54,644 nucleotides of DNA from Longimicrobiales bacterium (GTDB lineage Bacteria; Gemmatimonadota; Gemmatimonadetes; Longimicrobiales; Gaopeijiaceae). Numbering within the stretch: the stretch's first letter is position 1; every line of letters begins with the position of its first letter. The translations under genes were made by a program, and so were the position numbers. The notes under the pieces are model-generated. The model was not told where the DNA came from. It did no database searches and worked only from the letters and a program-made list of their open reading frames with translations. Location: positions 721,199 through 775,842 of the forward strand of contig JAWLHJ010000002.1 of NCBI GenBank assembly GCA_041690395.1, in the 5' to 3' direction. Shown here piece by piece: positions 39,634 through 54,644 of the stretch.

Positions 39634-41547
39634 ATGCGCCCTCCAGCGGTTCGCATCCCGCCCTCGCCTCCGGAGCCGTCCCGCTTGACCCACTCCGAGC
39701 TCCTCATCGGCATCGCCGCCATCTTCGTCCTCGGCATCGGCGCGCAGTGGATCGCCGCCAAGCTCAACACTCCGTCCATCCTGCCGCTCCTGATCCTCGG
39801 CTTCATCGCCGGCCCCGTCACCGGGCTCGTGCGGCCGGACGAGATGTTCGGGGATCTCCTCTTCGTGATCGTGCCCCTGGCCGTCGGCGTCGTGCTCTTC
39901 GAGGGAGGCATGACGCTGTCCATCTCCGAGATCCGGAGCCATCACGGCGTCGTGCGCCGCCTCATCACCACCGGCATGCTCGTCACGTGGGGCATCGCCG
40001 CCGGCGCGGCCATCGTCATCCTGAACCTCTCTTCGGGGATCGCGGTCCTGTTCGGCGCCGTGATCGTCGTGTCCGGCCCCACGGTCGTCGGCCCGCTGCT
40101 CCGCTCCGTCCGCCCGCGCCCGCGCATGCGCACGATCCTGAACTGGGAGGGGATCCTCATCGATCCCATCGGCGCGACCCTCGCCGTGATCGTGTTCGGC
40201 ATCCTGATCGCCGGCGGCGGCTCGCTCACCGGCGGGCTCGGCGGCGTCCTTTCGACCCTGGCGGCGGGCGCGATCGTCGGCCTGATCGGGGCCGGCGCGA
40301 TGGTCCTGCTTCTCAAGGGATACCTGATCCCCGATCGCATGCAGGCTTCGGTCACGCTGGCGGCCATCGTGACCGCGTTCGTCGTCTCCGATCTCATACG
40401 GCCCGAATCCGGGCTGCTCGCCGTCACCCTCATGGGGATCGCCCTCGCGAACCAGCCCTTCGTGCCCGTCGGTCGTATCGTGGCCTTCAAGGAGACCCTC
40501 CGGGACCTCCTCATCGCCGCGCTCTTCATCGTGCTCGCCGCCCGGCTCGAGATGGAGGACGTGCTGTCCGTCGGCTTCGCAGAGGTTCTCTTCCTTTCGG
40601 TGATGGTGCTTCTGGCACGGCCGCTCACCGTGTTCATCTCCACCCTCGGCTCCGATCTCAGCCAGCGCGAGCGACTGTTCCTGGCATGGGTCGCCCCACG
40701 CGGCATCGTCGCCGCCGCCGTGGCCTCCGTCTTCGCGATCCCGCTGGAGGCGCAGGAGATCGTCGACGCCGACCGGCTCGTGCCGCTCACCTTCTTCGTC
40801 ATCGTCGGAACCGTCGCGCTCTACTCGCTGACCGCCAAGGTCGTGGGACGCCTGCTCGGCGTCGTCGACGAGCGCCCCGGCGGGCTCACCATCGTGGGCG
40901 CCAACCCCGTCGCGCGTGAGCTCGCCAAGTCCCTGGCCGATGCCGGGGTCGAAGTCCAGCTCATCGCCACGAACCATTCGGAGCTCACCAAGGCCCGGAT
41001 CGAAGGTCTAGACGCCGTGCGGGCCAGCGTGCTGGACCAGGTCTCCGAGGAGACCAGCGGCATCCTGCTGATCGCCACGCCCAACGACGAGTTCAACACC
41101 CTCGCCGCCATCCGCGCCGTCGAGTCGCGGGACCGGGCCCACGTCTATCAGCTCGCGCCGTCGGGCGGGAGCGACACCGCGGCCGCCCGGCCGCGCGCCC
41201 GCCTCTTCGTGTCCCCCGAGCTCACCTTCATCATGGCCTCGGAAGCGATGCTCGCGGGGGGCACCTTCCGCGGCACCGCGCTCACCGAGCAGTTCACCTT
41301 CCATGATTACCGGAAGCGCTATGGGGACCGGGCGATCCCCACCTTCCTCGTGGAGCGGAAGCGCCTCGTCGGGGTCTTCAGCGCGGACTCGTCGCTCACG
41401 CCCTCGCCCGGACAGATCGTCGTGTCCTTGATCACGCCCGAGGTCCCCGCGCCCGCGACGGTCGACGAGGAGGAGGTCATCGAGGCCATGGAGCGGAGCG
41501 GGCCCACGGGCCCGGAGGGGACGGGGCCGACCGGCTCGGGGACGTAG
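39634..41547 (+). CDS. CPA1 cation/H+ antiporter with C-terminal RCK-like domain
   Basis: LFEGG, SGPTVV.PLL, WEGILIDP.GA, APRGIVAA; start may be TTG at 39685. Confidence 0.88.
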   Translation: MRPPAVRIPPSPPEPSRLTHSELLIGIAAIFVLGIGAQWIAAKLNTPSILPLLILGFIAGPVTGLVRPDEMFGDLLFVIVPLAVGVVLFEGGMTLSISEIRSHHGVVRRLITTGMLVTWGIAAGAAIVILNLSSGIAVLFGAVIVVSGPTVVGPLLRSVRPRPRMRTILNWEGILIDPIGATLAVIVFGILIAGGGSLTGGLGGVLSTLAAGAIVGLIGAGAMVLLLKGYLIPDRMQASVTLAAIVTAFVVSDLIRPESGLLAVTLMGIALANQPFVPVGRIVAFKETLRDLLIAALFIVLAARLEMEDVLSVGFAEVLFLSVMVLLARPLTVFISTLGSDLSQRERLFLAWVAPRGIVAAAVASVFAIPLEAQEIVDADRLVPLTFFVIVGTVALYSLTAKVVGRLLGVVDERPGGLTIVGANPVARELAKSLADAGVEVQLIATNHSELTKARIEGLDAVRASVLDQVSEETSGILLIATPNDEFNTLAAIRAVESRDRAHVYQLAPSGGSDTAAARPRARLFVSPELTFIMASEAMLAGGTFRGTALTEQFTFHDYRKRYGDRAIPTFLVERKRLVGVFSADSSLTPSPGQIVVSLITPEVPAPATVDEEEVIEAMERSGPTGPEGTGPTGSGT

Positions 41548-41820
41548 GCTTCGCGCCGGAGGCCGCAGCGCCCCGCGTGTCCGTCCTTCCGGCCCAACAG
41601 GTCCGTGAGCCGCGGAGCCCCGGCGGAGCCCCGAACGCATCGTCTTCCCGCGCCGTGGGGTCCGTAGGCCCCAGCCCCCGAGGCATCCCCTTCCCACGCC
41701 GCGACGTCCGCAGACCCAGCCCCCGAGACATCGCCTTCCCCAGCCACGACCCACAACGAGGTGCCCACGGCCGTCCCGTTCCGGCATTCCCTCGCCCCGC
41801 GTCTCCGTGCTCCTTGCACC

Positions 41821-43101
41821 ATGCGCAGAGAGCCCGCCGTGACTGTTCGCGTCCACCCCCAGGAGGACCGCATCCTCATCCGATTCGGATGGCGTCGCTT
41901 CGCCGCCGTGCTCGACGCCGTGAAGGCACTCGCCGGGCGCCGCTACCTCCCGGAGCGGGCGCTCTGGAGCGCCCCCGCCCCCGATGCCGCCATCCGATCT
42001 CTCCAGCAGGCGTTGGGGAGGGATGAAGTGTGGATCATCGACGACCGTCCGTTGCTCGGGCCCGAGCTGCCGGCGGGGTGGACCAAGCCGGACGATCGGA
42101 ACCGGCCGGAGGGTCGACATCGGCGCACCACGGCGCAGGCGACCCGACCGGAACGCCCCACGGAAGCGCACCCGGCACGCCCCACCCGCGCCGATGCCCG
42201 AGACCCGGCGCGTCTCGAGCCATCCGACGCCCCAGCCCCCTCGCGGCTCGACCCGACGGGCGACGAGCTCCTGGCGCGCGTCCACGCTGCACTCGACCTC
42301 AGGGGATACAGTCCGCGCACGCGGAAGGTCTATCTAGGCCACCTCCGCCGATTCTTCGAGTGGTGCGGGGGCGGCACCCCGAAGCTGCCGGAAGATCCCG
42401 CGCGGAGTGCGCAAGCGTACCTCCTCGAGCTCGTACGTGGGCCCGGTATCTCGAAGAGCTACCATAACCAGATCGTGAGCGCCCTCCGGTTCCTGTGCGA
42501 GACCGTGCTCGGGCAGCCCCGGCTCGCGCTCCGGATCCCGAGGCCCCGGAAGGAGCGGAAGCTCCCCGCGGTGCTAAGCCCCGGCGAAGTCGCCCGCATA
42601 CTCGGCAAGACCCGGAACCTCAAGCACCGAGCGCTGCTCATGCTCCTCTACAGCGCCGGCCTCAGGGTGGGCGAGGTGGTCCGGCTCACACCCGCCGATC
42701 TCGACATGGATCGCGGGCTCGTGCGTGTGCGCGGCGGCAAAGGCGGAAAGGATCGGTACACATTGCTGGCCCAACGAGCCATCGAAGCCGTGCGTCTCTA
42801 CCGGGACGCCTATCCCGCACGCCCGTGGCTGTTTCCCGGTGGTATGAAGGAGACCCACCTGACGACGCGATCTGTCCAACGCATCGTCCAGGAAGCTGCC
42901 GAAGCCGCCGGCATCGAGAAGCACGTCACGGCCCACACCCTCCGTCACAGCTTCGCCACCCATCTCCTGGAGGGCGGCACGAACCTCCGCGTCATCCAGG
43001 AGCTCCTCGGCCACCAGAGCGCGAGGACGACCCAGGTGTACACCCACGTGGCCCGGTCCACCCTGGAAACCGTGAGGAGCCCGCTGGACAACCTGGAGTG
43101 A
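41821..43101 (+). CDS. Tyrosine recombinase of an integron-like element (SAM-like plus catalytic domains, extra N-terminal domain, no IntI-specific insertion)
   Basis: YSPRTRKVY, LPAVLS, YSAGLRVGE, GKGGKDR, HTLRHSFATHLLE, LGH, TQVY, terminal RSPLD; start uncertain (41761/41821/41839). Confidence 0.92.
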   Translation: MRREPAVTVRVHPQEDRILIRFGWRRFAAVLDAVKALAGRRYLPERALWSAPAPDAAIRSLQQALGRDEVWIIDDRPLLGPELPAGWTKPDDRNRPEGRHRRTTAQATRPERPTEAHPARPTRADARDPARLEPSDAPAPSRLDPTGDELLARVHAALDLRGYSPRTRKVYLGHLRRFFEWCGGGTPKLPEDPARSAQAYLLELVRGPGISKSYHNQIVSALRFLCETVLGQPRLALRIPRPRKERKLPAVLSPGEVARILGKTRNLKHRALLMLLYSAGLRVGEVVRLTPADLDMDRGLVRVRGGKGGKDRYTLLAQRAIEAVRLYRDAYPARPWLFPGGMKETHLTTRSVQRIVQEAAEAAGIEKHVTAHTLRHSFATHLLEGGTNLRVIQELLGHQSARTTQVYTHVARSTLETVRSPLDNLE

Positions 43102-43189
43102 AGCGGACCGGATCTTCGGGCCAGATCGGGTCGATGGGCGGTGGGCCACAGGCGGGGCGACCGGAGGCCGGGCCCCCGACGCGATTACC

Positions 43190-43218
43190 TTGCGCCTTAT
43201 CGACAGCCGGTGAACAAT
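43190..43218 (+). promoter_or_regulatory. Candidate cassette promoter (Pc-like)
   Basis: TTGCGC-17bp-AACAAT about 110 bp upstream of the putative attI, pointing into the array. Confidence 0.3.
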
Positions 43219-43318
43219 GCCAGGGTCGGAGCCAAGCCGTCAGGCGCCTCTAATATCGGGACTCTCGACGTCGGAAATCCCCCCGAGAAAGAGCGTAAAG
43301 CGACACTTTGCTTCGGCA

Positions 43319-43332
43319 ATAACCAGTTATGG
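43319..43332 (+). other. Putative attI-type primary recombination site (crossover near G43326/TT)
   Basis: ATAAC-CA-GTTAT palindrome; gttatggaacattggc pairs with gccaacgtcccataac before the first attC; downstream sequence matches the start of the last cassette (54569). Confidence 0.75.
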
Positions 43333-43740
43333 AACATTGGCCGAGCGGTTCGGTTTCTTGCGTCGGCTCCCTATGACGGAGGGCTTGCACGGTCGCGGCG
43401 CGGGGCTCCCCTCTGCCCCCTTTGGGGGCTCTGTAGTTTCCCGTCCGCGCCTGAGCTGGAGCCGACGCTAGACCCGCAGCTTCATCGTCATCTTCCTTGC
43501 TCAGAGGACCCGGCTACCCGATCGCCAGTGGCTCCCTGCGTCGGCGGGGCGAGTGCCTCGAAGGAGGCGCGGCTCCCTTCGTCGCGATCCCGAGAGACCA
43601 GCGCTGTAACTGAGCTCAGGTTCTTGAAGTGAAGTTCTCTCGGAGCCGCGCTTTCTCCGGGGGTAGGCCCGCCGACGCCAGGCGGAGTGCTTGGTCTCAT
43701 CGGGCGGGCTCACGTGGACATCGTGGAAGCCAACGTCCCA

Positions 43741-43891
43741 TAACAAGTATGTTTCTGGGTCCGCTCACTTCGTTCGCTCCCCCTACATGGCCTTACGATC
43801 GAACGTGGCCCGGGAGCGGATCGCAGTGTATTCTCCGGCAGGTAAGCGTGGGCCGGCTGATGGGGGCCACGTCAGAAACATCTGAACGTTA
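43741..43891 (+). repeat. attC-like site 1 (core type B)
   Basis: TAAC-aagt-ATGTTTCTG...ACATGGCC...GGCCACGT-CAGAAACAT-ctgaac-GTTA. Confidence 0.9.
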
Positions 43892-43948
43892 TCGGTCATT
43901 GCAGGCCGGGCATGAGGGCAGGCGGGTCGCGAACGGGCCTCCACTGGA

Positions 43949-44335
43949 GTGAGCGTGCATATTCCGGGACTTGAGATTAGGGAGCCACTGGAGCATCGCC
44001 CCATTCGTGGAACAATCCATGGTGGTTCCGTGGGGATCCTGTTCGGCGTTCTGGCTGTCGTCGGTGGAGCAGATGGTGGCACTCTGTTCGGCGGATACAC
44101 CGCCGGCTGCGCGGCGGCAGGTCTCGTTATTGGGTCTGCCCTGCCATTGTTCCGGTCGAGGGTGCTGGCTGGAGTAGTCGTGGCCGTTGCTTGGTCAGTC
44201 GGCCACGGGATTGCGACTCAACTCTGGGGCCAAGAGATGGGATTCCCGCTTGTGGCCTCGGTCGGGATGGCGATGGGATTCGCCTACGCCGTCTTGCTGT
44301 GGGACTACAAGTCAACAGGAGTAGCGCCGCATTAG
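43949..44335 (+). CDS. Cassette 1: hypothetical 4-TM membrane protein
   Basis: Single hydrophobic ORF inside the cassette; duplicated in cassette 2. Confidence 0.6.
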   Translation: MSVHIPGLEIREPLEHRPIRGTIHGGSVGILFGVLAVVGGADGGTLFGGYTAGCAAAGLVIGSALPLFRSRVLAGVVVAVAWSVGHGIATQLWGQEMGFPLVASVGMAMGFAYAVLLWDYKSTGVAPH

Positions 44336-44513
44336 TGGTGCGCTAAGGTTTCGACCTTAGGGGCACTGCCAGCGTGAGTCAGCCGACATGCCGTCTTGGT
44401 AGTGCCTCGTGGCCTGTGACTAGGCGACGCGTCCTTCAACTCTAGCTCGCGAGGGGACGAAGGTCGGTTTCACCGCCCGGACTGGTGTTGTCCGGCAAGC
44501 CTGCAACGACCGA

Positions 44514-44669
44514 TAACAAGAATGTTTCCGGCTCCGCTCACTGCGTTCGCTCCGACCTACATGGCCTCGAGCGTTTCAGGTCCGTAGACTGGGTGCAGTG
44601 ACGTAGGTTCCGCTTCTGTTCGCATGTAAGCAGTGCGGCGGTGGCCACGTCGGAAACATCTGAACGTTA
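44514..44669 (+). repeat. attC-like site 2 (type A)
   Basis: TAAC..ATGTTTCCG...CGGAAACATCTGAACGTTA. Confidence 0.9.
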
Positions 44670-44727
44670 TCGGTCATTGCAGGCCGGGCATGAGGGTCAG
44701 GCGGGTCGCGAACGGGCCTCCACTGGA

Positions 44728-45114
44728 GTGAGCGTGCATATTCCGGGACTTGAGATTAGGGAGCCACTGGAGCATCGCCCCATTCGTGGAACAATCCATG
44801 GTGGTTCCGTGGGGATCCTGTTCGGCGTTCTGGCTGTCGTCGGTGGAGCAGATGGTGGCACTCTGTTCGGCGGATACACCGCCGGCTGCGCGGCGGCAGG
44901 TCTCGTTATTGGGTCTGCCCTGCCATTGTTCCGGTCGAGGGTGCTGGCTGGAGTAGTCGTGGCCGTTGCTTGGTCAGTCGGCCACGGGATCGCGACTCAA
45001 CTCTGGGGCCAAGAGATGGGATTCCCGCTTGTGGCCTCGGTCGGGATGGCGATGGGATTCGCCTACGCTGTCTTGCTGTGGGACTACAAGTCAACAGGAG
45101 TAACGCCGCATTAG
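44728..45114 (+). CDS. Cassette 2: near-identical copy of the cassette 1 membrane protein
   Basis: Same protein except GVAPH versus GVTPH. Confidence 0.6.
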   Translation: MSVHIPGLEIREPLEHRPIRGTIHGGSVGILFGVLAVVGGADGGTLFGGYTAGCAAAGLVIGSALPLFRSRVLAGVVVAVAWSVGHGIATQLWGQEMGFPLVASVGMAMGFAYAVLLWDYKSTGVTPH

Positions 45115-45298
45115 TGGTGCGCTGAGGTTTCGAGCTTAGGGTCCGAAGAGCACTGCCAGCGTGAGTCAGCCGACATCCCGTCTTGGTAGTGCCTCGTGGT
45201 CTGACTAGGCGACGCGTCCTTCAACTCTAGCTCGCGAGGGGACGAAGGTCGGTTTCACCACCCGGACTGGTGTTGCCCGGCAAGCCTGCAACGACCGA

Positions 45299-45453
45299 TA
45301 ACAGGAATGTTTCCGGTTACGCGGGCTGCGCCCGCTCCACCTACATGGCCTCGAGCGCTTCGGGTCCGTATGCTGGGTGCAGTGACGTGGGTTCCGCTTC
45401 TGTTCGCATGTAAGCTGTGCGGCGGTGGCCACGTCGGAAACATCTGAACGTTA
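45299..45453 (+). repeat. attC-like site 3 (type A)
   Basis: Same consensus as the other repeats. Confidence 0.9.
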
Positions 45454-45598
45454 TATGACATCGCCTGAGGGGTTCTGAGGGGTCGAGGCGACCCTTTGAG
45501 GGGAGTTGAATAGGATTTAACGGAGCCCTTGCGTTAAAAATTTTGGCGCACGATTTTAATGTCCTCACGCCCCATTAAAGCCTCCTTCCCCCACTCGA

Positions 45599-46744
45599 AT
45601 GGACACTTCGGCTTTTGGCCCGAAGTCCCCTGGCAAGCTGGTTCCCGTATCGGGTGTTCGGGACGTTACGCACGCCTTTTGCCCGGAGCCTCTGCCTCCG
45701 AACTGGACGTTTCCGGCGGCCTTATGGCCGCTCCTCACGGACGCCCGAGTCGCTTTGGCGGACCTGAACGGGGTTGGTCGATATCTGCCTAATCCCGACC
45801 TGTTACTGCGCCCGCTCCAGAATCGAGAGGCACAAAAATCCTCGAGTCTTGAGGGGACGTACACGGAGCCCGAAGAGCAGATGCTGTTTGAGCTCGAGCC
45901 CGAGTTGCCCCGAGACGTGGCAGATCCCCGAAATGCTCGCAGGGAGGTCTCAAACTACGCTCGGGCTCTGCGGATCCGGCGCGAGAAGGATGAACTACCC
46001 CTCTCCTGGAGGCTGACCAAGACGCTTCACGAGGTCTTGATGGATGGGGTCCGTGGGTCGGATCGCGCCCCGGGGGAATTTCGGCGGCTCCAGAATCAAA
46101 TCGGTCGGCCGCCCAGATTTGTCCCCCCGCCAGCACATCTCGTCCCAGACCTACTCGACAACTTCGAGAAGTACTTGCATGCTGACGACGGGTTGGACCC
46201 TCTCGTACGTGCTTTTGTAGCGCACTATCAATTCGAAACCATCCATCCGTTCATGGACGGAAATGGCCGCGTCGGAAGACTGCTCCTCGCGATATCGATT
46301 GAGGAGTGGTGCGGACTATCGGCACCTTGGCTCTACATGAGCGACTTCTTCGATAGGAACAAAGACGACTACATCGACCTCATGTTTGCCGTGAGTTCCC
46401 GCGGAGACTGGGAGAGTTGGATCCGTTTCTGCCTCGAGGGAGTCGTGATTCAAGCCAAGGACACTGCCGCACGTTGCGGAGCACTGATTCAATTGAATAG
46501 GGACTTCCACGAGCGGGTCAACCAAATGGGTGCCAGCATCAGGCTCTCGGCTCTGGTCGACGACCTCTTCTTGAATCCCATGGTACGCGTGACGGACGCG
46601 CGAGATCGCCTCAGTGTAACCTACCCCACGGCCCGCAGTGATCTCCAAAAGCTTGAGCGAGCCGGAATCGTCCGGCTCCTGAAAGGAGCGCCACAGCTGA
46701 CTTACTTCTCCGGCCCGATCCTGAACACTATTTACGGCGATTGA
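45599..46744 (+). CDS. Cassette 3: Fic family protein with N-terminal domain and C-terminal wHTH
   Basis: HPFMDGNGRVGR Fic motif; EAQKSSSLEGT inhibitory-like motif; VTYPTARSDLQKL HTH. Confidence 0.92.
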   Translation: MDTSAFGPKSPGKLVPVSGVRDVTHAFCPEPLPPNWTFPAALWPLLTDARVALADLNGVGRYLPNPDLLLRPLQNREAQKSSSLEGTYTEPEEQMLFELEPELPRDVADPRNARREVSNYARALRIRREKDELPLSWRLTKTLHEVLMDGVRGSDRAPGEFRRLQNQIGRPPRFVPPPAHLVPDLLDNFEKYLHADDGLDPLVRAFVAHYQFETIHPFMDGNGRVGRLLLAISIEEWCGLSAPWLYMSDFFDRNKDDYIDLMFAVSSRGDWESWIRFCLEGVVIQAKDTAARCGALIQLNRDFHERVNQMGASIRLSALVDDLFLNPMVRVTDARDRLSVTYPTARSDLQKLERAGIVRLLKGAPQLTYFSGPILNTIYGD

Positions 46745-46781
46745 TGGGTTGCTCCAGACGGTTCGGTGGGGCGACGTCATA

Positions 46782-46930
46782 TAACAAGAATGTTTCCGGG
46801 TCCGCTCGCTGCGCTCGCTCCCCCTACATGGCCTTCAGGCTGTCGTGGCGCTGGAGCAGATCGCAGCGTATTCTCGGGCAGATGGTTCAGACGGTCCGGT
46901 GGTGGCCACGTCGGAAACATCTGAACGTTA
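46782..46930 (+). repeat. attC-like site 4 (type B)
   Basis: Same consensus as the other repeats. Confidence 0.9.
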
Positions 46931-46978
46931 TGTGAAACTGGCCTCGGATTGAGGCCGATCGTGTGGACCCTCCCGAGC

Positions 46979-47007
46979 TTGCTACTGTACCACGTTTGTG
47001 GTACTAT
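46979..47007 (+). promoter_or_regulatory. TA cassette promoter with overlapping palindromic operator
   Basis: TTGCTA-17bp-TACTAT; GTACCAC-gttt-GTGGTAC at 46987-47004. Confidence 0.75.
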
Positions 47008-47013
47008 GTGCCC

Positions 47014-47319
47014 ATGGGTTTCTCCTCCGCGAAGCGAGCGCTCCTGGCCGCCCTCGAGGTTGGCAACTTCCAGCACGAGGCCCGGGAGGTTCTCAGCGAG
47101 AAGAACCTGCTGGCCGTCGGGGACATCTCCGTGGACGAGGTCATCGGCATCGTGAAGCGGGCTCGCGGCCCGGACTATTCGGCGTCGCCTCATCACTGGG
47201 ATCCGGGCACCGAGGTACACGTGTTCCGGCCGACGGTCGAAGGGACCCGATGGTATGTGAAGGCCTACTTCCTTGAAGAACCCGAAGGAACTGCGGTCTT
47301 CATCAGCATTCACCGGTAG
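47014..47319 (+). CDS. Cassette 4: putative MqsR/RelE-superfamily toxin
   Basis: 101 aa, C-terminal WYVKAYF...VFISIH as in MqsR-like RNases; toxin-first gene order. Confidence 0.65.
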   Translation: MGFSSAKRALLAALEVGNFQHEAREVLSEKNLLAVGDISVDEVIGIVKRARGPDYSASPHHWDPGTEVHVFRPTVEGTRWYVKAYFLEEPEGTAVFISIHR

Positions 47320-47325
47320 GACGAC

Positions 47326-47916
47326 ATGAAGATCATCGAAGAAGGTACGAGGGGTGTTGCTCTAGCTCCGGAGCGCGGGAAGGTCCCCGTGGTATTCGAA
47401 TACCGTGACCTGACCCTGGACTCTGGAGTCGTGGTCAAGGACGTCCTCGTTGGGGTGGCTGAGGACACGGGAGAGGTCCTCACCGTTCCGGCCCAGTCCA
47501 CGCCTCGGATCAAGCTGGCCAGGCTGGCGGCGAAAGATGAGACGTTCTCGGTCCGCATCCCATTCGAGCTGAACGATATCCTGTGGGGTGTGTCTCACGA
47601 GCTCGGAGCGAATCCGACGAAGTTCAACTCTGCGTTGATCCGGTTTTATCTACATGAAGCGACCGACAGCCGGACCATGGCCCGGAGGTTGAAGAGGCTC
47701 TCGACTTCCGACCTAGCCGCGAAGTCCTCGAAGACCAAGCTCACCCTCCGGTCCGACTCGGATCTTCTTGAACGGGTCAAGCAGGTCGAAGAGAGAGAGG
47801 GGGTCTCTCGGAGTGAGCTGGTGAGAGGGGCCGTGATCGCAATGAAGGAAGATGTTTTCGACCGGCCGAGGAAGGGTCGCTTGGGTCAGCTAAGAGCCAT
47901 TGCTGAGGCGGTCTGA
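47326..47916 (+). CDS. Cassette 4: putative antitoxin (MqsA-like N-terminus, RHH-like C-terminus)
   Basis: V.DVLVGVAEDTGE resembles the MqsA C..CGE motif; two RHH-like segments. Confidence 0.6.
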   Translation: MKIIEEGTRGVALAPERGKVPVVFEYRDLTLDSGVVVKDVLVGVAEDTGEVLTVPAQSTPRIKLARLAAKDETFSVRIPFELNDILWGVSHELGANPTKFNSALIRFYLHEATDSRTMARRLKRLSTSDLAAKSSKTKLTLRSDSDLLERVKQVEEREGVSRSELVRGAVIAMKEDVFDRPRKGRLGQLRAIAEAV

Positions 47917-47941
47917 TTTGGCCGACCAGGCCAGCATCACA

Positions 47942-48092
47942 TAACAAGTATGTTTCCGGCTTCGCTCACTTCGTTCGCTCCGACCTACATGGCCTCGAGC
48001 GAATGTGGTCCGGGAACCAAGTGCAGCGTATTCTCGAAGTGAAGGTCCGACCACAGTTCGTGGTGGGCCACGTCGGAAACATCTGAACGTTA
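47942..48092 (+). repeat. attC-like site 5 (type B)
   Basis: Same consensus as the other repeats. Confidence 0.9.
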
Positions 48093-48341
48093 GCCGACAC
48101 CCTCAGACAGGTGCGGTAGGCGGGGTGGCCGCAACGAGCTTCTTGGGTTTCGGTCTCTTGGGCGGCTCCTGCGGGGTCGCCGGGTGGCTCAGCGAACCGT
48201 CTCTCTGAAATTCTCCCCTTCCCCGCCCAGGAGCTCAGGCCCCAGCAACCCACAACGCAACGCGACAAGCGCCAAGAGTTCAAAGTCTCGGGTCTAGGGT
48301 CGCGCGCTGAAACGTTCCTTGGTCTGAGGGCATCGGCTAAC
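48089..48341. other. Cassette 5: ORF-less cassette body (253 bp)
   Basis: Homologous to 51811-52065 and 52213-52466. Confidence 0.75.
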
Positions 48342-48493
48342 AAGAATGTTTCCGGCTCCGCGGGCTTCGCCCGCTCCGACCTACATGGCCTCGAGCGTCT
48401 CAGGTCCGTAGACTGGGTGCAGTGACGTGGGTTCCGCTTCTGTTCGTCTGTAAGCCGCGCGGCGGTGGCCACGTCGGAAACATCTGAACGTTA
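48338..48493 (+). repeat. attC-like site 6 (type A)
   Basis: Same consensus as the other repeats. Confidence 0.9.
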
Positions 48494-48581
48494 TGTGTAA
48501 TTGCCCTGGTGCCGGGGGATTGGGTTCAGATGGATGTCGCGAGGCTGATGCGTTCGCGTTGACCCAGGCGGTGATGAGCGA

Positions 48582-49784
48582 ATGAAGGGACTCGGAGTTC
48601 TTCTAATCCTGGGCATGTTCGCATGTGATCGTGCGGACCCACCTGAGGCCAGTGGGATTCCGACTACGACGTCGTCTCCACCGTACCCGGAGTGGTCACT
48701 GAGCTCCGAGCCTGACGTCCGCATCGGGGCGGTGGACGGGCCGCCGGAGTACCAGCTTACCCGCATCGGACTTGCCGGACGTCTAACCGACGGAAGGATC
48801 GTCGTGTTCGATAACGGCTCGTCTGAGCTGCGTTGGTTTGGTCCCGACGGAGGATTCCAGGCGCGAGCGGGAGGTCCCGGCGAGGGTCCAGGCGAGTTCC
48901 GGAGCGTGGTCAGCGCAGCCGTGACTCCACAGGACTCGGTCGTTCTGTATGACTTCAGGAATCAGCGGCTGACCTGGCACGGACCGGACGGAGTTCTCGG
49001 TCGCACCCTGCGGGCCGAGCTACATCCTTCCATGAGGCTCGTTTCCCGCCAAGACGAGCGCATCGTCATTGCGGAGGAACGGCCGGCGTTGAATCTAGGC
49101 GGTGCTGAGTACAACTACGCCCGGGACTCGGTCCTGATCATGTTAACCGGCAGCACGACACAGCCTCTCGACACCTTGGTGCACCGTGCCGGTCGAGAGG
49201 CGGCGACCTGGGTCGAGTACGCGGACGGAAGACCAATCGGCACTCGACAGCTCGGTCTGCCCTTCAGTCATCCGACACTCGTCGGAGCCGCAGCAGAAGG
49301 GATCGTGCTCCTGGAGAGCGGACGGTCTGAACTGGCTTTCCTGGATGATGAGGGCCAGGTGGTTCGGATGGCACACCGTACGGACGTGGATTCCCCTGCT
49401 CTTTCAGCTGTTCTGCGCCAAGAGTACGTGAGGAACGCCGTGCAGTCGGCGAGAGAGAGAGACGTTCCGGAACAGCCCGCTCGAGCTGCGGCCGAAGGTC
49501 TCCTCGCGGTGATCCCGGAAGGACATAGAGTGTCGCCCTTCGACCGCATGCTGACAGACCCTGTCTCGGGAAGGATCTGGGTCCGTGACTATCTGTTCGA
49601 TTGGAATGCCGGGGGAGCTCAGTATTGGACGGTGCATGATTCGCTCGGCCACGTCTTAGGGCGAGTCGCAACTCCGCCGGGACTTGAAGTCATGCAGGTG
49701 GGCTCCGATTTCGTGGTCGGAGTCGAGCGAGACCAGTTGGGGGTGGAGTATGTTGTCGCGTACTCGCTGGAGGGCTCCGACTAG
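48582..49784 (+). CDS. Cassette 6: lipoprotein, probable 6-bladed beta-propeller
   Basis: Lipobox MFAC; GGPGEGPGEF NHL-like motif; GRIWVRDY. Confidence 0.75.
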   Translation: MKGLGVLLILGMFACDRADPPEASGIPTTTSSPPYPEWSLSSEPDVRIGAVDGPPEYQLTRIGLAGRLTDGRIVVFDNGSSELRWFGPDGGFQARAGGPGEGPGEFRSVVSAAVTPQDSVVLYDFRNQRLTWHGPDGVLGRTLRAELHPSMRLVSRQDERIVIAEERPALNLGGAEYNYARDSVLIMLTGSTTQPLDTLVHRAGREAATWVEYADGRPIGTRQLGLPFSHPTLVGAAAEGIVLLESGRSELAFLDDEGQVVRMAHRTDVDSPALSAVLRQEYVRNAVQSARERDVPEQPARAAAEGLLAVIPEGHRVSPFDRMLTDPVSGRIWVRDYLFDWNAGGAQYWTVHDSLGHVLGRVATPPGLEVMQVGSDFVVGVERDQLGVEYVVAYSLEGSD

Positions 49785-49877
49785 ATGCGGATCGCGCGCG
49801 AAGAAGATCTTTGGGTTCTCCTCTCGGCGGCACCGCCGGTAACCGCATCGGTTTAGGTTGAGCCGGGCAACTACACA

Positions 49878-50027
49878 TAACAAGAATGTTTCCGGGTCCG
49901 CTCGCTGCGCTCGCTCCCCCTACATGGCCTCGAGCTGTCGGACATCGTAAGCTGTCAGTTGAACTCGGTGCGTTTCAGCAGAGAAAAGCGCATATGCTGG
50001 GGCCACGTCGGAAACATCTGAACGTTA
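49878..50027 (+). repeat. attC-like site 7 (type C)
   Basis: Same consensus as the other repeats. Confidence 0.9.
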
Positions 50028-50058
50028 TGTGAAACAGCTCCCCGCCTGAGGGAACGCG

Positions 50059-50628
50059 GTGGCATCGGAAGCAGGAGAATTGAACAGGGACACCCTGCCC
50101 GAGGTTATCGAGACGGAACGACTCGTCCTTCGACCGTTCCAACTCGGTGACGTGGAAGATGTCCTGGCCTATGCTCAGGATCCTGAATGGGCCCGCTTCT
50201 TGAGGGACCTCCCTCAGCCCTATGGACGGGCCGAGGCTGAGCAGGCTGTCGCCAAGCAGCTCCTGATGGACCGGGTTCGAGAGCCGAACTGGGCCTTGGT
50301 CTTTGAAGGCCAAGTCATCGGAGGCGTGATCCTATTGTTGGATTTCTCGAACAGGTCCGCCGAGGTCGGCTACTCCGTGGGCCGCAAGCAATGGAATAAG
50401 GGGTTGGCTACGGAAGCCGTCCGCGCCGTCATCGATGCGGCATTCTCCACACATGAAGATCTCAACCGGGTGTGGGCGAGGACGGATCCGGACAACGTGG
50501 CTTCCCAGCGGGTGCTCGAGAAGGTGGGAATGACGAAGGAAGGCGTTCTGCGTCTGAGTCGGGTGTACAACGGAGAGGCGTTCGACGAAGCGTACTTCTC
50601 TTTGCTTCGGACAGAACGGGGAGCGTGA
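50059..50628 (+). CDS. Cassette 7: RimJ/RimL-family GNAT acetyltransferase
   Basis: IETERLVLRPF, AEVGY, WNKGLATEA, NVASQRVLEKVGM..EG. Confidence 0.92.
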   Translation: MASEAGELNRDTLPEVIETERLVLRPFQLGDVEDVLAYAQDPEWARFLRDLPQPYGRAEAEQAVAKQLLMDRVREPNWALVFEGQVIGGVILLLDFSNRSAEVGYSVGRKQWNKGLATEAVRAVIDAAFSTHEDLNRVWARTDPDNVASQRVLEKVGMTKEGVLRLSRVYNGEAFDEAYFSLLRTERGA

Positions 50629-50659
50629 TCGACGGGGTACGGCGGGGAGCTGCATCACA

Positions 50660-50814
50660 TAACAAGAATGTTTCCGGTTACGCGGGCTGCGCCCGCTCCA
50701 CCTACATGGCCTCGAGCGCTTCGGGTCCGTATGCTGGGTGCAGTGACGTGGGTTCCGCTTCTGTTCGATTGTAAGCAGCGCGGTGGTGGCCACGTCGGAA
50801 ACATCTGAACGTTA
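50660..50814 (+). repeat. attC-like site 8 (type A)
   Basis: Same consensus as the other repeats. Confidence 0.9.
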
Positions 50815-50826
50815 TCGGTCATTGAA

Positions 50827-51060
50827 TCACGACCATGGTGCAGAGACTTCTCCGTCTAGCTCGTCGAGCTTCCGCTGCATGAAGGCTCGGGCATCTTGCA
50901 CTGCTTGGTTGTAAACGTGGGGCCCGACCTCATCGAGGCAGAAGTCAAGTAACTGGGACGCGCGGAACGAGCTCAAGGTCTCGTCGAACTCCTCCAGATA
51001 GAACCCCTGGATACGGAGAATCAGCTGCTCGCGTCGCTCGTCTGAGAGCCTCAGAGTCAT
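50827..51060 (-). CDS. Cassette 8: DUF2164 family protein
   Basis: IQGFY.EE...LLDF...EVGP.VYNQAVQDA. Confidence 0.8.
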   Translation of the reverse strand: MTLRLSDERREQLILRIQGFYLEEFDETLSSFRASQLLDFCLDEVGPHVYNQAVQDARAFMQRKLDELDGEVSAPWS

Positions 51061-51118
51061 CGGGTTTGTCCGTCCATTTCTTGCGTTAGAGAAAGAGTAC
51101 GATGGCCCACAGTGAAAG

Positions 51119-51625
51119 ATGAAGCTAACCGAGCCCAGGATCGAACGATCTCACCACATGAGGTTGGTTGGACTCAGTGCGCGGATGTCCTTTGGCGAGC
51201 CAGCCATGTCAGAGCTGTGGCGGACTTTTCGTCCGAGAGCCCGGCAGATCGGGAATCGGAGGAGCCAGGACTTCGTCTCCATGCGCGTGTTCGTTCCTCC
51301 GCTGAAGACCATGCCCCGGCTGGATTCCCCGTTCGTGCAGTGGGCGGCCGTTGAGGTCCACGACTTCGATCACGTTCCCGAAGGCCTCGACACGTGCGTG
51401 GTGCCGGAGGGTCTCTATGCAGTCTTTGTCCATCACGGTACAGCGGAGAGCTTCGGCCGAACGGCCCAGTTCATTTTTCGAGATTGGTTGCCGCAGTCTC
51501 CGTATCAGCTAGCACCCCGGGAGTTCTTCGAGATTCTTGGTCCAGACTATCGTCCGGACGATTCCGATGCATCCGAAGAGGTCTGGATACCTGTCGAACC
51601 TCGGCTACCAAGGCAGAGTGACTGA
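51119..51625 (+). CDS. Cassette 8: GyrI-like small-molecule binding protein
   Basis: LVGLS, LW..F, WAAVEV, VPEG, GLYAVFVH.G, IF.DWLPQS.Y, EEVWIPV. Confidence 0.88.
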   Translation: MKLTEPRIERSHHMRLVGLSARMSFGEPAMSELWRTFRPRARQIGNRRSQDFVSMRVFVPPLKTMPRLDSPFVQWAAVEVHDFDHVPEGLDTCVVPEGLYAVFVHHGTAESFGRTAQFIFRDWLPQSPYQLAPREFFEILGPDYRPDDSDASEEVWIPVEPRLPRQSD

Positions 51626-51664
51626 AGATGGGGCCGATCGTGTAGGTGATGATTCAACGACCGA

Positions 51665-51814
51665 TAACAAGAATGTTTCCGGCTCCGCTCACTTCGTTCG
51701 CTCCGACCTACATGGCCTCGAACGTGCAGGCATCGTATGCTGGCAGGTGAACTCGAAGGTTTCAGGTAAGATGAGCGCATATGCGGTGGCCACGTCGGAA
51801 ACATCTGAACGTTA
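51665..51814 (+). repeat. attC-like site 9 (type C)
   Basis: Same consensus as the other repeats. Confidence 0.9.
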
Positions 51815-52065
51815 GGCGACATCACTGAGCAGGTGCGGTAGGCGAGGTGCCCGCTATCAGCTTCTAAGGTTTCGGTATCTCGGGCGGCTCCTTCAGGGTA
51901 ACCGGCCGGCTCAGCGAGCGGGATCTCCACTGAGGTCCCCCTTCCCCGCCCGAGAACTGAGGTTCCATCGAACCTCGTCGCATCGCAACCAGCGCCAAGA
52001 GTTCGAAGTCTTGGGTCTAGCTTTCACCGGCTGGAACGTTCAATGGCTCAGTGACGCCGCCTAAC
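51811..52065. other. Cassette 9: ORF-less cassette body (255 bp)
   Basis: Homolog of cassette 5. Confidence 0.75.
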
Positions 52066-52216
52066 AAGAATGTTTCCGGTTGCGCGGGCTTCGCCCGCTC
52101 CACCTACATGGCCTCGAGCGCTTCGGGTCCGTAGACTGGGTGGAGTGACGTGGGTTCCGCTTCTGTTCGCATGTGAGCCGTGCGGCGGTGGCCACGTCGG
52201 AAACATCTGAACGTTA
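52062..52216 (+). repeat. attC-like site 10 (type A)
   Basis: Same consensus as the other repeats. Confidence 0.9.
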
Positions 52217-52466
52217 GCCGACATCGCGGAGCAGACGCGGGAAGCGGAGTGCCCGCGACGAACAACTGAGGTCGGTATTTCGGGCGGCTCCCTGCGGGGT
52301 CGCTGAGCGGCTCAGCGAACGGACTGAGATCAGGGGTCACCCCACTCCTCCACCCCGTTTCGGACCTGACATGGCCCACAGATCGCGGGGGAGCGCCAAG
52401 AGTTTGGAGGTCCAGGGTCTAGTTTCACCCCCAGCTACGTTCGTTGGCTCCGCGACGCCGGCTAAC
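52213..52466. other. Cassette 10: ORF-less cassette body (254 bp)
   Basis: More diverged homolog of cassettes 5 and 9. Confidence 0.7.
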
Positions 52467-52617
52467 AAGAATGTTTCCGGTTACGCGGGCTTCGCCCGCT
52501 CCACCTACATGGCCTCGAGCGCTTCGGGTCCGTATGCTGGGTGCAGTGACGTGGGTTCCGCTTCTGTTCGCATGTAAGCCACGCGGCGGTGGCCACGTCG
52601 GAAACATCTGAACGTTA
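52463..52617 (+). repeat. attC-like site 11 (type A)
   Basis: Same consensus as the other repeats. Confidence 0.9.
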
Positions 52618-52669
52618 TACGCCATTGGCCTAAGGGTTCGGTTTCACTTCCGGGTGGGGAGGCGAACAG

Positions 52670-53191
52670 ATGGGACGAACGGGAGCTTCCGCATCGCCTA
52701 CAGCTTCCCTATGCCTTTTCCTCATCGGACTCGCAGCCTGTGCCCCGGATGCTCAGCAGCACCTGGTAGAGCAGTTAGCTGAACCCGTCTCGGCCAACCC
52801 TGGATGTTACGAGGTATCTGGCACCACTGGCTTCCCCGAAGGAATTTTCGATCTGTATCTCCCCGAGGCCTTTCGGTTGCGGCCGCCCCGGCAGTCGGTC
52901 GCCGACGGGCACATCTTCAGTTATGCCGTCGAGTTCTTGAGCGTACCCGAGCGCTACCGCCCTTTCAATCGCATCGGAGAGGCGAGGAGCATACGCCCTG
53001 ACTCGCTGCTGGTCGTCTGGGACGGGGTAGTCCAGCGATTCCAGATCCGGCAAGATGGAGCGCTCACGGGGATCGTCACTCTCAGGAGACCGGAGATCGA
53101 GGTTCTCGGTGAGGTTGAGGCCCACCTGGTTGATTGTCCTACCGAGGAAGCTCCGACTGCCCCTCAAGTACCGTTCCCTGGAAGTGGCTGA
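52670..53191 (+). CDS. Cassette 11: hypothetical lipoprotein
   Basis: GGAGG RBS; lipobox LAAC. Confidence 0.6.
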   Translation: MGRTGASASPTASLCLFLIGLAACAPDAQQHLVEQLAEPVSANPGCYEVSGTTGFPEGIFDLYLPEAFRLRPPRQSVADGHIFSYAVEFLSVPERYRPFNRIGEARSIRPDSLLVVWDGVVQRFQIRQDGALTGIVTLRRPEIEVLGEVEAHLVDCPTEEAPTAPQVPFPGSG

Positions 53192-53296
53192 GGACGCAGC
53201 GAGCGACAAGTAGCTTTCTCGGGACTCGGAGGCTGAGAGCGCTTCGGCTCAAGGGTGAGGGCCAAGGACTGTAGGGAAGCGACGGCCAACGGCGTA

Positions 53297-53452
53297 TAAC
53301 AAGAATGTTTCCGGCTCCGCTCACTGCGTTCGCTCCGTCCTACATGGCCTCAAGCGTCTCAGGTCCGTATGCTGGGTGCAGTGACTTTGGCTTCGCTTCT
53401 GTTCGCATGTGAGCAGTTCGGCGGTGGCCACGTCGGAAACATCTGAACGTTA
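53297..53452 (+). repeat. attC-like site 12 (type A)
   Basis: Same consensus as the other repeats. Confidence 0.9.
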
Positions 53453-53585
53453 TACGACAAAGCGCAGGTTGTAGGGAGCAGGTCGGTAGGCCCGGACCAA
53501 GGACCTGGGTCGGTTCCGTCGGGCACGGACGTACAGATACGAGAGGCCGCCTGATCCGCTCGATCTCACGAATGGGAACCCCAGC

Positions 53586-54308
53586 TTGGAGAACGCTCAC
53601 GCCGGCCAGGTAGGAAGATCCGAGAGCGCCCGAGCCGGCGTGGCCGCCGCGGCCATCTTCCTGTTCGCAGTAGGGGCCTCCGCTGTGCTGACCTGGTCCA
53701 ACGGAAGCGTGTATAGCTTCCTATTCGGCGGGCTCAACCCCCTCCTGGTGACTGCAGCCGCCGCCCTTTTTGGAGTCGCTGCGCTTCAACGCCTTGCCCT
53801 TCTCGGGTGGTTCCAGGCTGGGGGCGCCAGTACTCGTAGCGTCGCGCTCGCCTCGGTGCTCGGTGCAGCCCTGACCGTTCCGGTCATCGTCATCGATCTC
53901 TTCGGTGGCTTTCCGGCCGAGCTGAATGTTCGGTTTCCGGAGTCCTTACTCTTCTATCCGTCCATCGCCGTGGTTGCGGAGTCGGCCTTTCATCTGGTGC
54001 CCCTGGCCCTGATGGCGATGGTGTGGAGGTGGACTTCCCTGGAGTTCTCGCGCGCTCGGCTCTTTGCGATCGGGATTGCTGCGGTAATCGAGCCGGTTCT
54101 CCAGGTGGCCTGGGGGAGTGAGATGTTACCGAGTTGGGCGAATGCCTACGTCGGCATCCATCTCTTGGTCTTCAATGTGGTCGCGCTCGAGATCTTCCGA
54201 CGCTCTGGGTTCGTTGCGCTCTATGGGTTCAGAGTCGGGTACTATCTCGTTTGGCACATCACCTGGGGCTACTTCCGACTTCCGCTGCTCTTCGAGAGCG
54301 GTACTTAG
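53586..54308 (+). CDS. Cassette 12: polytopic membrane protein, weakly CPBP/Abi-like
   Basis: About 7 TM segments; AESAFH and YYLVWH motifs; start uncertain. Confidence 0.65.
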   Translation: MENAHAGQVGRSESARAGVAAAAIFLFAVGASAVLTWSNGSVYSFLFGGLNPLLVTAAAALFGVAALQRLALLGWFQAGGASTRSVALASVLGAALTVPVIVIDLFGGFPAELNVRFPESLLFYPSIAVVAESAFHLVPLALMAMVWRWTSLEFSRARLFAIGIAAVIEPVLQVAWGSEMLPSWANAYVGIHLLVFNVVALEIFRRSGFVALYGFRVGYYLVWHITWGYFRLPLLFESGT

Positions 54309-54422
54309 GGAGGTGGCGGGCAGATTCCGGATGCGCGTGGATCTTGGACTGGAACCGGCTGGCACTTGTTTTGGGGTCAACCGCCGGTTGGGCCGGGCGT
54401 CGCGGGCCTGCGCTTCGTCGTA

Positions 54423-54572
54423 TAACAAGAATGTTTCCGGGTCCGCTCCCTGCGGTCGCTCCCCCTACATGGCCCGGAACGGGTGTGGCTCGAGAACGAA
54501 GTGCAGCGTATTCTCGATCAGGTCCGCGTGGACCGTCCGGTGGTGGGCCACGTCGGAAACATCTGAACGTTA
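54423..54572 (+). repeat. attC-like site 13 (type B)
   Basis: Same consensus; followed by a truncated cassette 13. Confidence 0.9.
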
Positions 54573-54644
54573 TAGGACATTGGCCCGAACGGTTCGGTTT
54601 GTTGCGTCGGCTCCCTCTTTCGGAGGACTTGCACGGTCGCGGCG

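Follow-up and report, generated by a model that had tools for sequence, protein, structure and literature searches.

A likely sister system of integrons in a Longimicrobiales bacterium: an insertion-less tyrosine recombinase beside a long cassette array

Sedentary chromosomal integrons, represented by the integrase VchIntIA (PDB 2a3v) and the protein family TIGR02249, and the insertion-less members of the Integron-like subgroup of tyrosine recombinases are the described systems closest to the one reported here. In that subgroup, the I2 insertion is confined to IntI and is absent from the members linked to IS91 and IS3, and the sections of the study drawn on here do not mention arrays for the insertion-less members (Smyshlyaev et al., 10.1101/542381). 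We analyzed a stretch of 54,644 nucleotides (the window; positions 721,199 to 775,842 of contig JAWLHJ010000002.1, assembly GCA_041690395.1) from a Longimicrobiales bacterium of the phylum Gemmatimonadota. The window ends at the end of its contig, C2, in a 4.33-Mb genome of 7 contigs that is 98% complete. Near this end, the gene of a tyrosine recombinase without the insertion is followed by an array, probably of about 50 cassettes, which is likely a sister system of integrons that would act on folded single strands.

The locus shares with sedentary chromosomal integrons the G|TT start of its cassettes, their complementary ends, the AAC/GTT core, the hairpin sites and their single orientation, as well as low-GC (guanine-plus-cytosine) promoterless genes, duplicated and open reading frame (ORF)-less cassettes, and a cargo of toxin-antitoxin, Fic, GNAT, and Cass2 genes. 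The recombinase also has TIGR02249 as its best match and an SPLD-type C-terminal end, and the layout is that of the canonical "inverted" integrons of the phylum. It differs from them in the absence of a 41-amino-acid (aa) insertion and of any extrahelical base (EHB) in the L stem, in a spacer asymmetry of +2/+3, in a cassette-end stem of about 17 bp with C/A at position 11 (10 to 11 bp in canonical systems), and in a HARP-like domain.

The recombinase is encoded by an ORF of 426 aa uninterrupted by stops and carries the motifs GLRVGE (position 280), KGGKDR (307), HTLRHS (372), LGHQS (396), TQVYTH (404), and RSPLD (419). The preliminary description of this DNA had reported an intact R-K-HxxR-H-Y recombinase ending in RSPLD, with 23 aa between KDR and WLFP; all of this was borne out, the gap being exactly 23 aa, and the scoring against PF00589 and PF13495 that it had proposed gave matches to both. 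It had also put the missing IntI segment at about 35 aa. The absence stands, but the size does not: the K motif and the H motif are 59 aa apart, compared with 100 to 103 aa in the IntI proteins of the same phylum, leaving 41 aa missing, and the segment missing relative to 2a3v is about 42 aa. The distance is 58 to 62 aa in the short homologues in which both motifs were found. The match to TIGR02249, the best in NCBIfam, reached 213 bits against a cut-off of 265 and was split, with profile positions 176 to 230 unmatched, and NF040815 scored 211, slightly under its cut-off of 220. The part of IntI that the IntegronFinder intI_Cterm profile represents is missing from the protein. The enzyme shares its fold, its catalytic residues, and the absence of the insertion with XerC/XerD and archaeal XerA, but it remained below the cut-offs of XerC and XerD (TIGR02224, 186 against 335; TIGR02225, 185 against 330), separate XerC and XerD proteins are encoded in the genome, and there is no dif context at the array. 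The closest named relatives are from Gemmatimonadota (70 to 81% identity). The genome gave four tyrosine recombinase matches, of which one is the array enzyme, two are XerD and XerC, and the fourth, on C6, is partial; none has an insertion-level score. A canonical intI elsewhere in the genome, which the preliminary description had considered as a possible source of the activity, was not found, and no canonical IntI over the cut-off was present in this genome or in the same-genus genome G287. A full-length fold of the recombinase predicted without an alignment had a mean predicted local distance difference test (pLDDT) score of 44.7 and was set aside.

Trees were calculated with IQ-TREE (59 rows) and FastTree (131 rows) from rows thinned by hand, with fragments left out. 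In the IQ-TREE tree, IntI (12 rows; SH-like approximate likelihood ratio test [SH-aLRT] 100), a clade of short, array-associated recombinases (33 rows, 96), and an IS91-linked group (93) were together separated from Xer with an SH-aLRT of 100, and no order was given among the three. The recombinase lay outside the IntI clade, which together with the absent insertion agrees with the earlier suggestion of a different recombinase subfamily. One IS91-linked protein was nested within the short array clade. FastTree placed the short clade (0.99) as sister to IntI (0.87), which IQ-TREE did not uphold, and because of this disagreement the trees do not decide between an ancestral lack and a loss of the insertion. 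The insertion-less Integron-like members linked to IS91 or IS3 (10.1101/542381) resemble the array enzyme in having PF13495 and PF00589, a K-to-H distance of 58 to 65 aa, and 42 to 46% identity. They stand directly before a transposase, with cassette sites in none of four loci and the HARP domain in none of five, whereas the recombinase here is followed by an attI-like site and cassettes instead of an IS91 transposase gene, and no transposase gene adjoins it within the window. IS91-coupled insertion-less relatives were seen at L111, L112, and L181:5407-7405, the last located inside a canonical integron array, and genome G223 holds seven near-identical copies. Another short-clade recombinase with a HARP-like domain (L026:8001-8786) is on a contig titled Nanohalarchaeota that ends 36 bases past the gene.

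At least 13 cassettes separated by TAAC...GTTA repeats had been described downstream of the gene and in its direction. The window indeed holds 13 such sites of 155 to 162 bp, from 43738-43894 to 54420-54575, all on the plus strand, and the array continues on contig C1. A site profile searched against the 4.3-Mb genome with nhmmer gave 58 matches: the 13 in the window, 36 (33 full and 3 partial) that form a single run at the end of C1, and 9 elsewhere, mostly degenerate. The final 76 bases of the window match exactly those that open a 562-bp cassette on C1, and both runs therefore probably belong to a single array of about 50 cassettes, split at a repeat. All 49 array sites share one orientation, and the GC content drops from 0.69–0.73 outside the array to 0.58–0.64 across it. 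The left seven bases of each site complement the GTTANNN that ends the previous site in 13 of 13 cases in the window (7 to 10 bases perfect) and in 32 of 37 over the whole array; in four of the five exceptions, the pattern had missed an intervening site. This chain begins 225 bases past the recombinase stop codon with GTTATGG at 43326; site 1 carries its reverse complement at the left end, which bears out the putative attI noted at the 3' end of the gene. In most of the relatives inspected (a candidate in 16 of 19), an attI-like motif follows the gene at 100 to 450 nt, with other first cassettes after it, and the same-genus contig L172 ends precisely at this motif. By sequence logic and conservation in relatives, an attI-like site thus appears to adjoin the recombinase gene as in an integron platform. 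Cassettes recur at distant array positions with 87 to 100% identity, the contigs of relatives, in which circles would not be visible, show different cassette neighbors, and a metagenome contig (X4) joins a site end to cassette 1. The distant duplicates, the differing first cassettes of relatives, and X4 point to a turnover of cassettes. Of 16 window cassettes compared with the loci of eight relatives, just one matched over more than 150 bases, too few for a comparison of cassette order.

The window sites fold as a hairpin with an L stem and an unpaired central spacer, and the R''/R' cores have AAC and GTT in all 13. The L stem is unbroken in every one of them, with 9 of 9 pairs at an offset of +2, whereas the best bulge model reaches only 6 to 7 of 9. 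There is no extrahelical base on the R''-L'' arm within the L stem of the window sites, although bases left unpaired in the spacer or past the stem could be equivalents. The asymmetry of the central spacer is 2 bases here and 2 to 3 in relatives. All four pair types were found at most L-stem positions, the stem sequence varies among clades while the pairing is retained, and within the array the sites have almost the same right end. The start and end of a cassette pair over about 17 bases, with a mean of 12.1 of 16 pairs for a cassette's own ends versus 6.2 of 16 for mismatched ends; the full stem is possible only where the cassette ends meet in an excised circle. At position 11 of this stem, a left-hand C faces a right-hand A in 37 of 37 rows of this array and in 71 of 79 rows from 27 other loci across phyla. 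Canonical arrays, whose ends pair over about 10 to 11 bases, have this combination in 0 of 19 and 1 of 29. Read on the bottom strand, the pair is G-T, whereas the top strand has a C-A mismatch; for the circle form, the bottom strand had the greater stability in 34 of 37. In three homologous ORF-less cassettes, both sides changed at 7 of 8 end-stem pairs with the stem kept. A home-made attC covariance model, built from 25 canonical sites, gave at most 12 bits on the window sites on either strand, without strand preference, and at most 19.8 bits on 11 short loci, compared with 16 to 62 bits on held-out canonical arrays on the expected strand. Of 50 held-out canonical sites, 39 were bulged, 8 were ties, and 3 were unbroken. 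The expectation of a different site architecture was thus upheld, and such sites are probably missed by standard attC models.

The type of site tracks the type of enzyme in Gemmatimonadota, Bacillota, Bacteroidota, Ignavibacteriota, and Spirochaetota. Downstream of the recombinase on the gene strand, 99 short-recombinase loci had 190 unbroken-stem sites and 1 bulged site, and the other three strand and side segments of similar length had 0 to 3 sites each. By contrast, 20 canonical IntI loci had 30 bulged sites (14 of them supplied by L123) and 2 unbroken sites. Free-offset scoring gave the same split. Among short loci with at least 3 kb of flank, two or more sites were present downstream in 31 of 53 and upstream in 0 of 71. 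In 80 homologous loci, dispersed repeats were found downstream and seldom upstream, and 33 contigs ended within 1.5 kb downstream of the gene versus 5 upstream. The homologues are thus linked to co-located arrays, as the preliminary description had anticipated. Its view of the co-oriented 3' layout as non-canonical did not hold. Canonical IntI is present in 125 of 301 genomes of the phylum, and every canonical array inspected there (L115, L117, L118, L123, and L126 to L130) is co-oriented at the 3' end of intI; because of this the layout is no mark of novelty, and it is already in print as the "inverted" group (PMC4889954). An array of at least 13 sites at L136 has another register (+1 or a 2-base bulge) and was missed by the unbroken-stem rule.

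The N-terminal HARP-like domain of the recombinase is followed by a low-complexity linker of about 75 aa. Members of its family were detected in 77 of 102 short loci (31 of them the seeds of the profile) and in none of 54 canonical, 21 Xer, and 5 IS91-type loci. Pfam HARP (PF07443) matches 23 of 53 family members at E ≤ 0.1, the member of the window not being matched alone, and a Pfam HARP search across genomes gave no match anywhere, with the controls likewise unmatched. The likeness to the HARP, UvsW N-terminal, and XPB damage-recognition domains consists of a sequence-profile match of the family to the SMARCAL1 HARP domain (4o66; E = 1.1e-5) and of fold. The predicted model of the domain had a pLDDT of 89.7, and its top fold matches were residues 1 to 84 of UvsW (Z 5.7, root-mean-square deviation [rmsd] 2.7, 60 aligned) and the N-terminal domain of XPB (Z 5.5, rmsd 2.4, 55 aligned). 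The 50 rows of a wide fold search did not include 4o66; in Foldseek it ranked 12, and nothing was found at E ≤ 0.001. In the ESM Atlas, residues 1 to 90 gave a best score of 0.88 with clusters without names. HARP proteins bind forks and single-strand/double-strand junctions (PMC4035279). Unlike the helicase-fused HARP domains, the one here is fused to a recombinase; we tentatively suggest that it would grip the branched or single-strand/double-strand part of the folded site.

We propose, with a probability of roughly two in three, that the insertion-less enzyme recombines folded bottom strands at G|TT and inserts cassettes at the attI-like site, the junction being resolved by replication. In both the excision and the insertion of cassettes, the enzyme would act on the bottom strand of each site in its folded state, and an excised circle would fold its bottom strand into the long stem with the G-T wobble at position 11. 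This stem and the lopsided spacer would set the choice of strand in place of extrahelical bases, and the L arm, being out of register, would prevent a second strand exchange. Replication would then resolve the junction, as in integrons, and insertion would take place at the double-stranded attI behind the gene. Because the I2 insertion and the extrahelical base are both absent, we did not file the system as IntI/attC. Bouvier et al. (PMC2727003) reported that IntI1 cannot delete cassettes between two sites without extrahelical bases and that such sites partly lose polarity. All 49 sites of the array keep their polarity, and another determinant and another enzyme would therefore be needed.

Several points weigh against this proposal. 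The recombinase and its cassettes are known here from sequence alone; a search of sequencing runs listed no RNA run containing this DNA, the best share being 0.22. Close relatives of the enzyme adjoin IS91 transposases without an array, and cassettes cannot be deduced from the type of enzyme by itself. Position 11 keeps its A in 78 of 79 rows, and this near-invariant base may be a sequence contact and not part of a wobble. Among integrated sites, stability favors the bottom strand in just 113 of 177. The unbroken-stem rule was defined after inspection of these loci, in which kin are not independent and one is probably counted twice, and by its strict form, which missed some repeats, fewer than two sites were counted in 21 of the 52 short loci that have 3 kb downstream. 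No HARP domain was detectable in 7 of 31 array loci, so that the domain is apparently not needed everywhere, and its fold matches are middling.

Other explanations of the array have to be considered. The cognate enzyme might act ancestrally on double-stranded sites with two exchanges, the hairpins being a by-product of cassette making. This would suit an enzyme without the I2 insertion, a part tied to single-strand recognition, and IntI1 itself keeps double-strand activity on attI (PMC4792948). The near-identical right ends of the sites would permit sequence-specific binding, and the A at +11 is conserved independently. The retention of L-stem pairing while the sequence differs among clades and the compensatory changes in the cassette-end stems speak against this explanation. 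Moreover, two strand exchanges by tyrosine recombinases require matching spacers, yet the attI and site spacers share few bases left of the crossover. We therefore regard double-strand action as unlikely. Alternatively, folded strands might be recombined as we propose, with a further partner or step, such as a host factor or an IS91-like strand-displacing enzyme, supplying the single strand or blocking the second exchange. The coupling of the nearest insertion-less relatives to IS91 transposases (see also 10.1101/542381), the lack of an evident substitute for the EHB brake, and the usual service of HARP domains to an ATPase partner (PMC4035279) all lend this some appeal, but no conserved partner gene was noticed beside the recombinase in the window (relatives were not systematically searched), and we consider such a requirement very unlikely.

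The least likely of the explanations weighed here is an orphan attC cluster made by a canonical IntI, now lost or located elsewhere, with the short recombinase as a bystander of the IS91-linked type. Canonical IntI is common in the phylum, the genome is split into contigs, Cury et al. (PMC4889954) judged such neighbors not to be IntI, and IntI1 still integrates sites without extrahelical bases at attI, with a rate of about one sixth (PMC2727003). Against it stand the inability of IntI1 to excise between two such sites, the correspondence of site and enzyme types across five phyla, the constant placing of the attI-like motif after the gene, the arrays always downstream of it, and the absence of an adjoining transposase gene. 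We thus favor recombination of folded strands by the cognate enzyme.

The features of the locus are listed in Table 1. The SoFic protein of cassette 4 had a PADLOC match of 6e-100, and its cassette is present in contigs of three metagenomes, one of them bounded at the cassette ends. The two ORFs of cassette 5 are a probable toxin-antitoxin pair, the second having weak CopG/RHH matches. The ORF-less cassettes of about 401 bp, with at least seven related copies on C1, are 76 to 100% alike, with internal motifs conserved, and could be RNA, promoter, or spacer cassettes; Rfam gave no match to this family and a single weak one (E 0.55) over 41000-54644, and the repeats belong to no family found there. 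A search for a Pc-type promoter gave 0 sigma-70-like matches in 41500-43900, with 0.1 expected in this GC-rich host. Three GC-rich direct repeats of about 36 bp, spaced 45 to 46 bp apart, lie just upstream of the recombinase gene (41624-41750). The far end of the C1 array (C1:983750-990250), where the right end is variant, three sites are cut short, and the genes in between do not resemble those of cassettes, is a decaying tail. Degenerate site copies in low-GC DNA off the array (C5:381100-387000, four; C6:27100-28700, two; C1:93200-93330, one; C7:108770-108840, one) are possibly old off-target insertions.

Table 1. Recombinase gene, attI-like site, and cassettes in the window
Feature	Position	Strand	Remarks
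Tyrosine recombinase, no IntI insertion	41821..43101	+	catalytic set intact, R282-K307-H372xxR375-H398-Y407
HARP-like domain, about residues 5-71	41833..42033	+	homologue-profile match 5e-7
Core-binding SAM-like domain PF13495	42268..42519	+	Pfam match
Catalytic domain PF00589	42574..43053	+	Pfam match
attI-like insertion point	43297..43332	+	predicted crossover G43326|T43327; core match to site 1
Cassette 1, 562 bp	43327..43888	+	no recognizable gene; 87% copy on C1
attC-like site 1	43738..43894	+	
Cassettes 2 and 3, tandem near-copies (97%)	43889..45450	+	each with a 128-aa hydrophobic ORF
Sites 2 and 3	44511-44672 and 45296-45456	+	
Cassette 4	45451..46927	+	Fic/SoFic protein 45599-46744; site 4 46779-46933
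Cassette 5	46928..48089	+	ORFs 46963-47319, 47326-47916; site 5 47939-48095; 91.5% copy on C1
Cassette 6, 401 bp, ORF-less family	48090..48490	+	site 6 48335-48496
Cassette 7	48491..50024	+	400-aa ORF 48582-49784, weak beta-propeller match; site 7 49875-50030
Cassette 8	50025..50811	+	GNAT acetyltransferase 50059-50628; site 8 50657-50817
Cassette 9	50812..51811	+	DUF2164 50827-51060 (minus), GyrI-like/Cass2 51119-51625; site 9 51662-51817
Cassettes 10 and 11, 402 and 401 bp, ORF-less family	51812..52614	+	51812-52213 and 52214-52614; sites 52059-52219, 52460-52620
Cassette 12	52615..53449	+	173-aa ORF 52670-53191, no family match; site 12 53294-53455
Cassette 13	53450..54569	+	240-aa hydrophobic ORF 53586-54308, no family match; site 13 54420-54575
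Cassette 14 start, cut by contig end	54570..54644	+	identical to start of C1 562-bp cassette

The recombinase subgroup is already in print in its IS91-linked form, and its link to arrays was not found in the literature searched; no account of arrays served by insertion-less integrases was found there, subscription papers not being covered. The near-invariant C/A at position 11 of the cassette-end stem and the N-terminal HARP-like domain are novel here. Cury et al. (PMC4889954) described 21 insertion-less recombinases near attC, four of them placed between IntI and Xer, and dismissed such neighbors because just 21 adjoined attC detected by their model. If the attC model misses the sites of the present type, that test could not have seen them. 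The features by which the sites were recognized (an offset of +2/+3, a stem without breaks, and C/A at position 11) supply a detector.

It is somewhat probable, by a narrow balance, that the array represents a second, widespread class of integrons, in which an I2-less and often HARP-fused integrase acts on sites without extrahelical bases, with the strand set by the G-T wobble and the lopsided spacer, and that this class fills Bacillota and Bacteroidota and may serve as a stand-in for the stage before I2 and extrahelical bases. Neron et al. (PMC9024848) reported one complete integron in Firmicutes, and complete integrons are hardly ever recorded in surveys of Firmicutes and Bacteroidetes. Arrays were seen here in Paenibacillaceae, clostridia, Bacteroidota, and spirochaetes, which hints at an extensive pool of cassettes not yet seen, whose cargo includes defence, toxin-antitoxin, and acetyltransferase genes. 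The I2 insertion and the extrahelical bases are regarded as twin inventions on which integron chemistry depends. Their joint origin has been posed as a chicken-and-egg paradox (Escudero et al., PMC4792948), and a cassette system that lacks both would make this question directly testable with a small enzyme and short sites.

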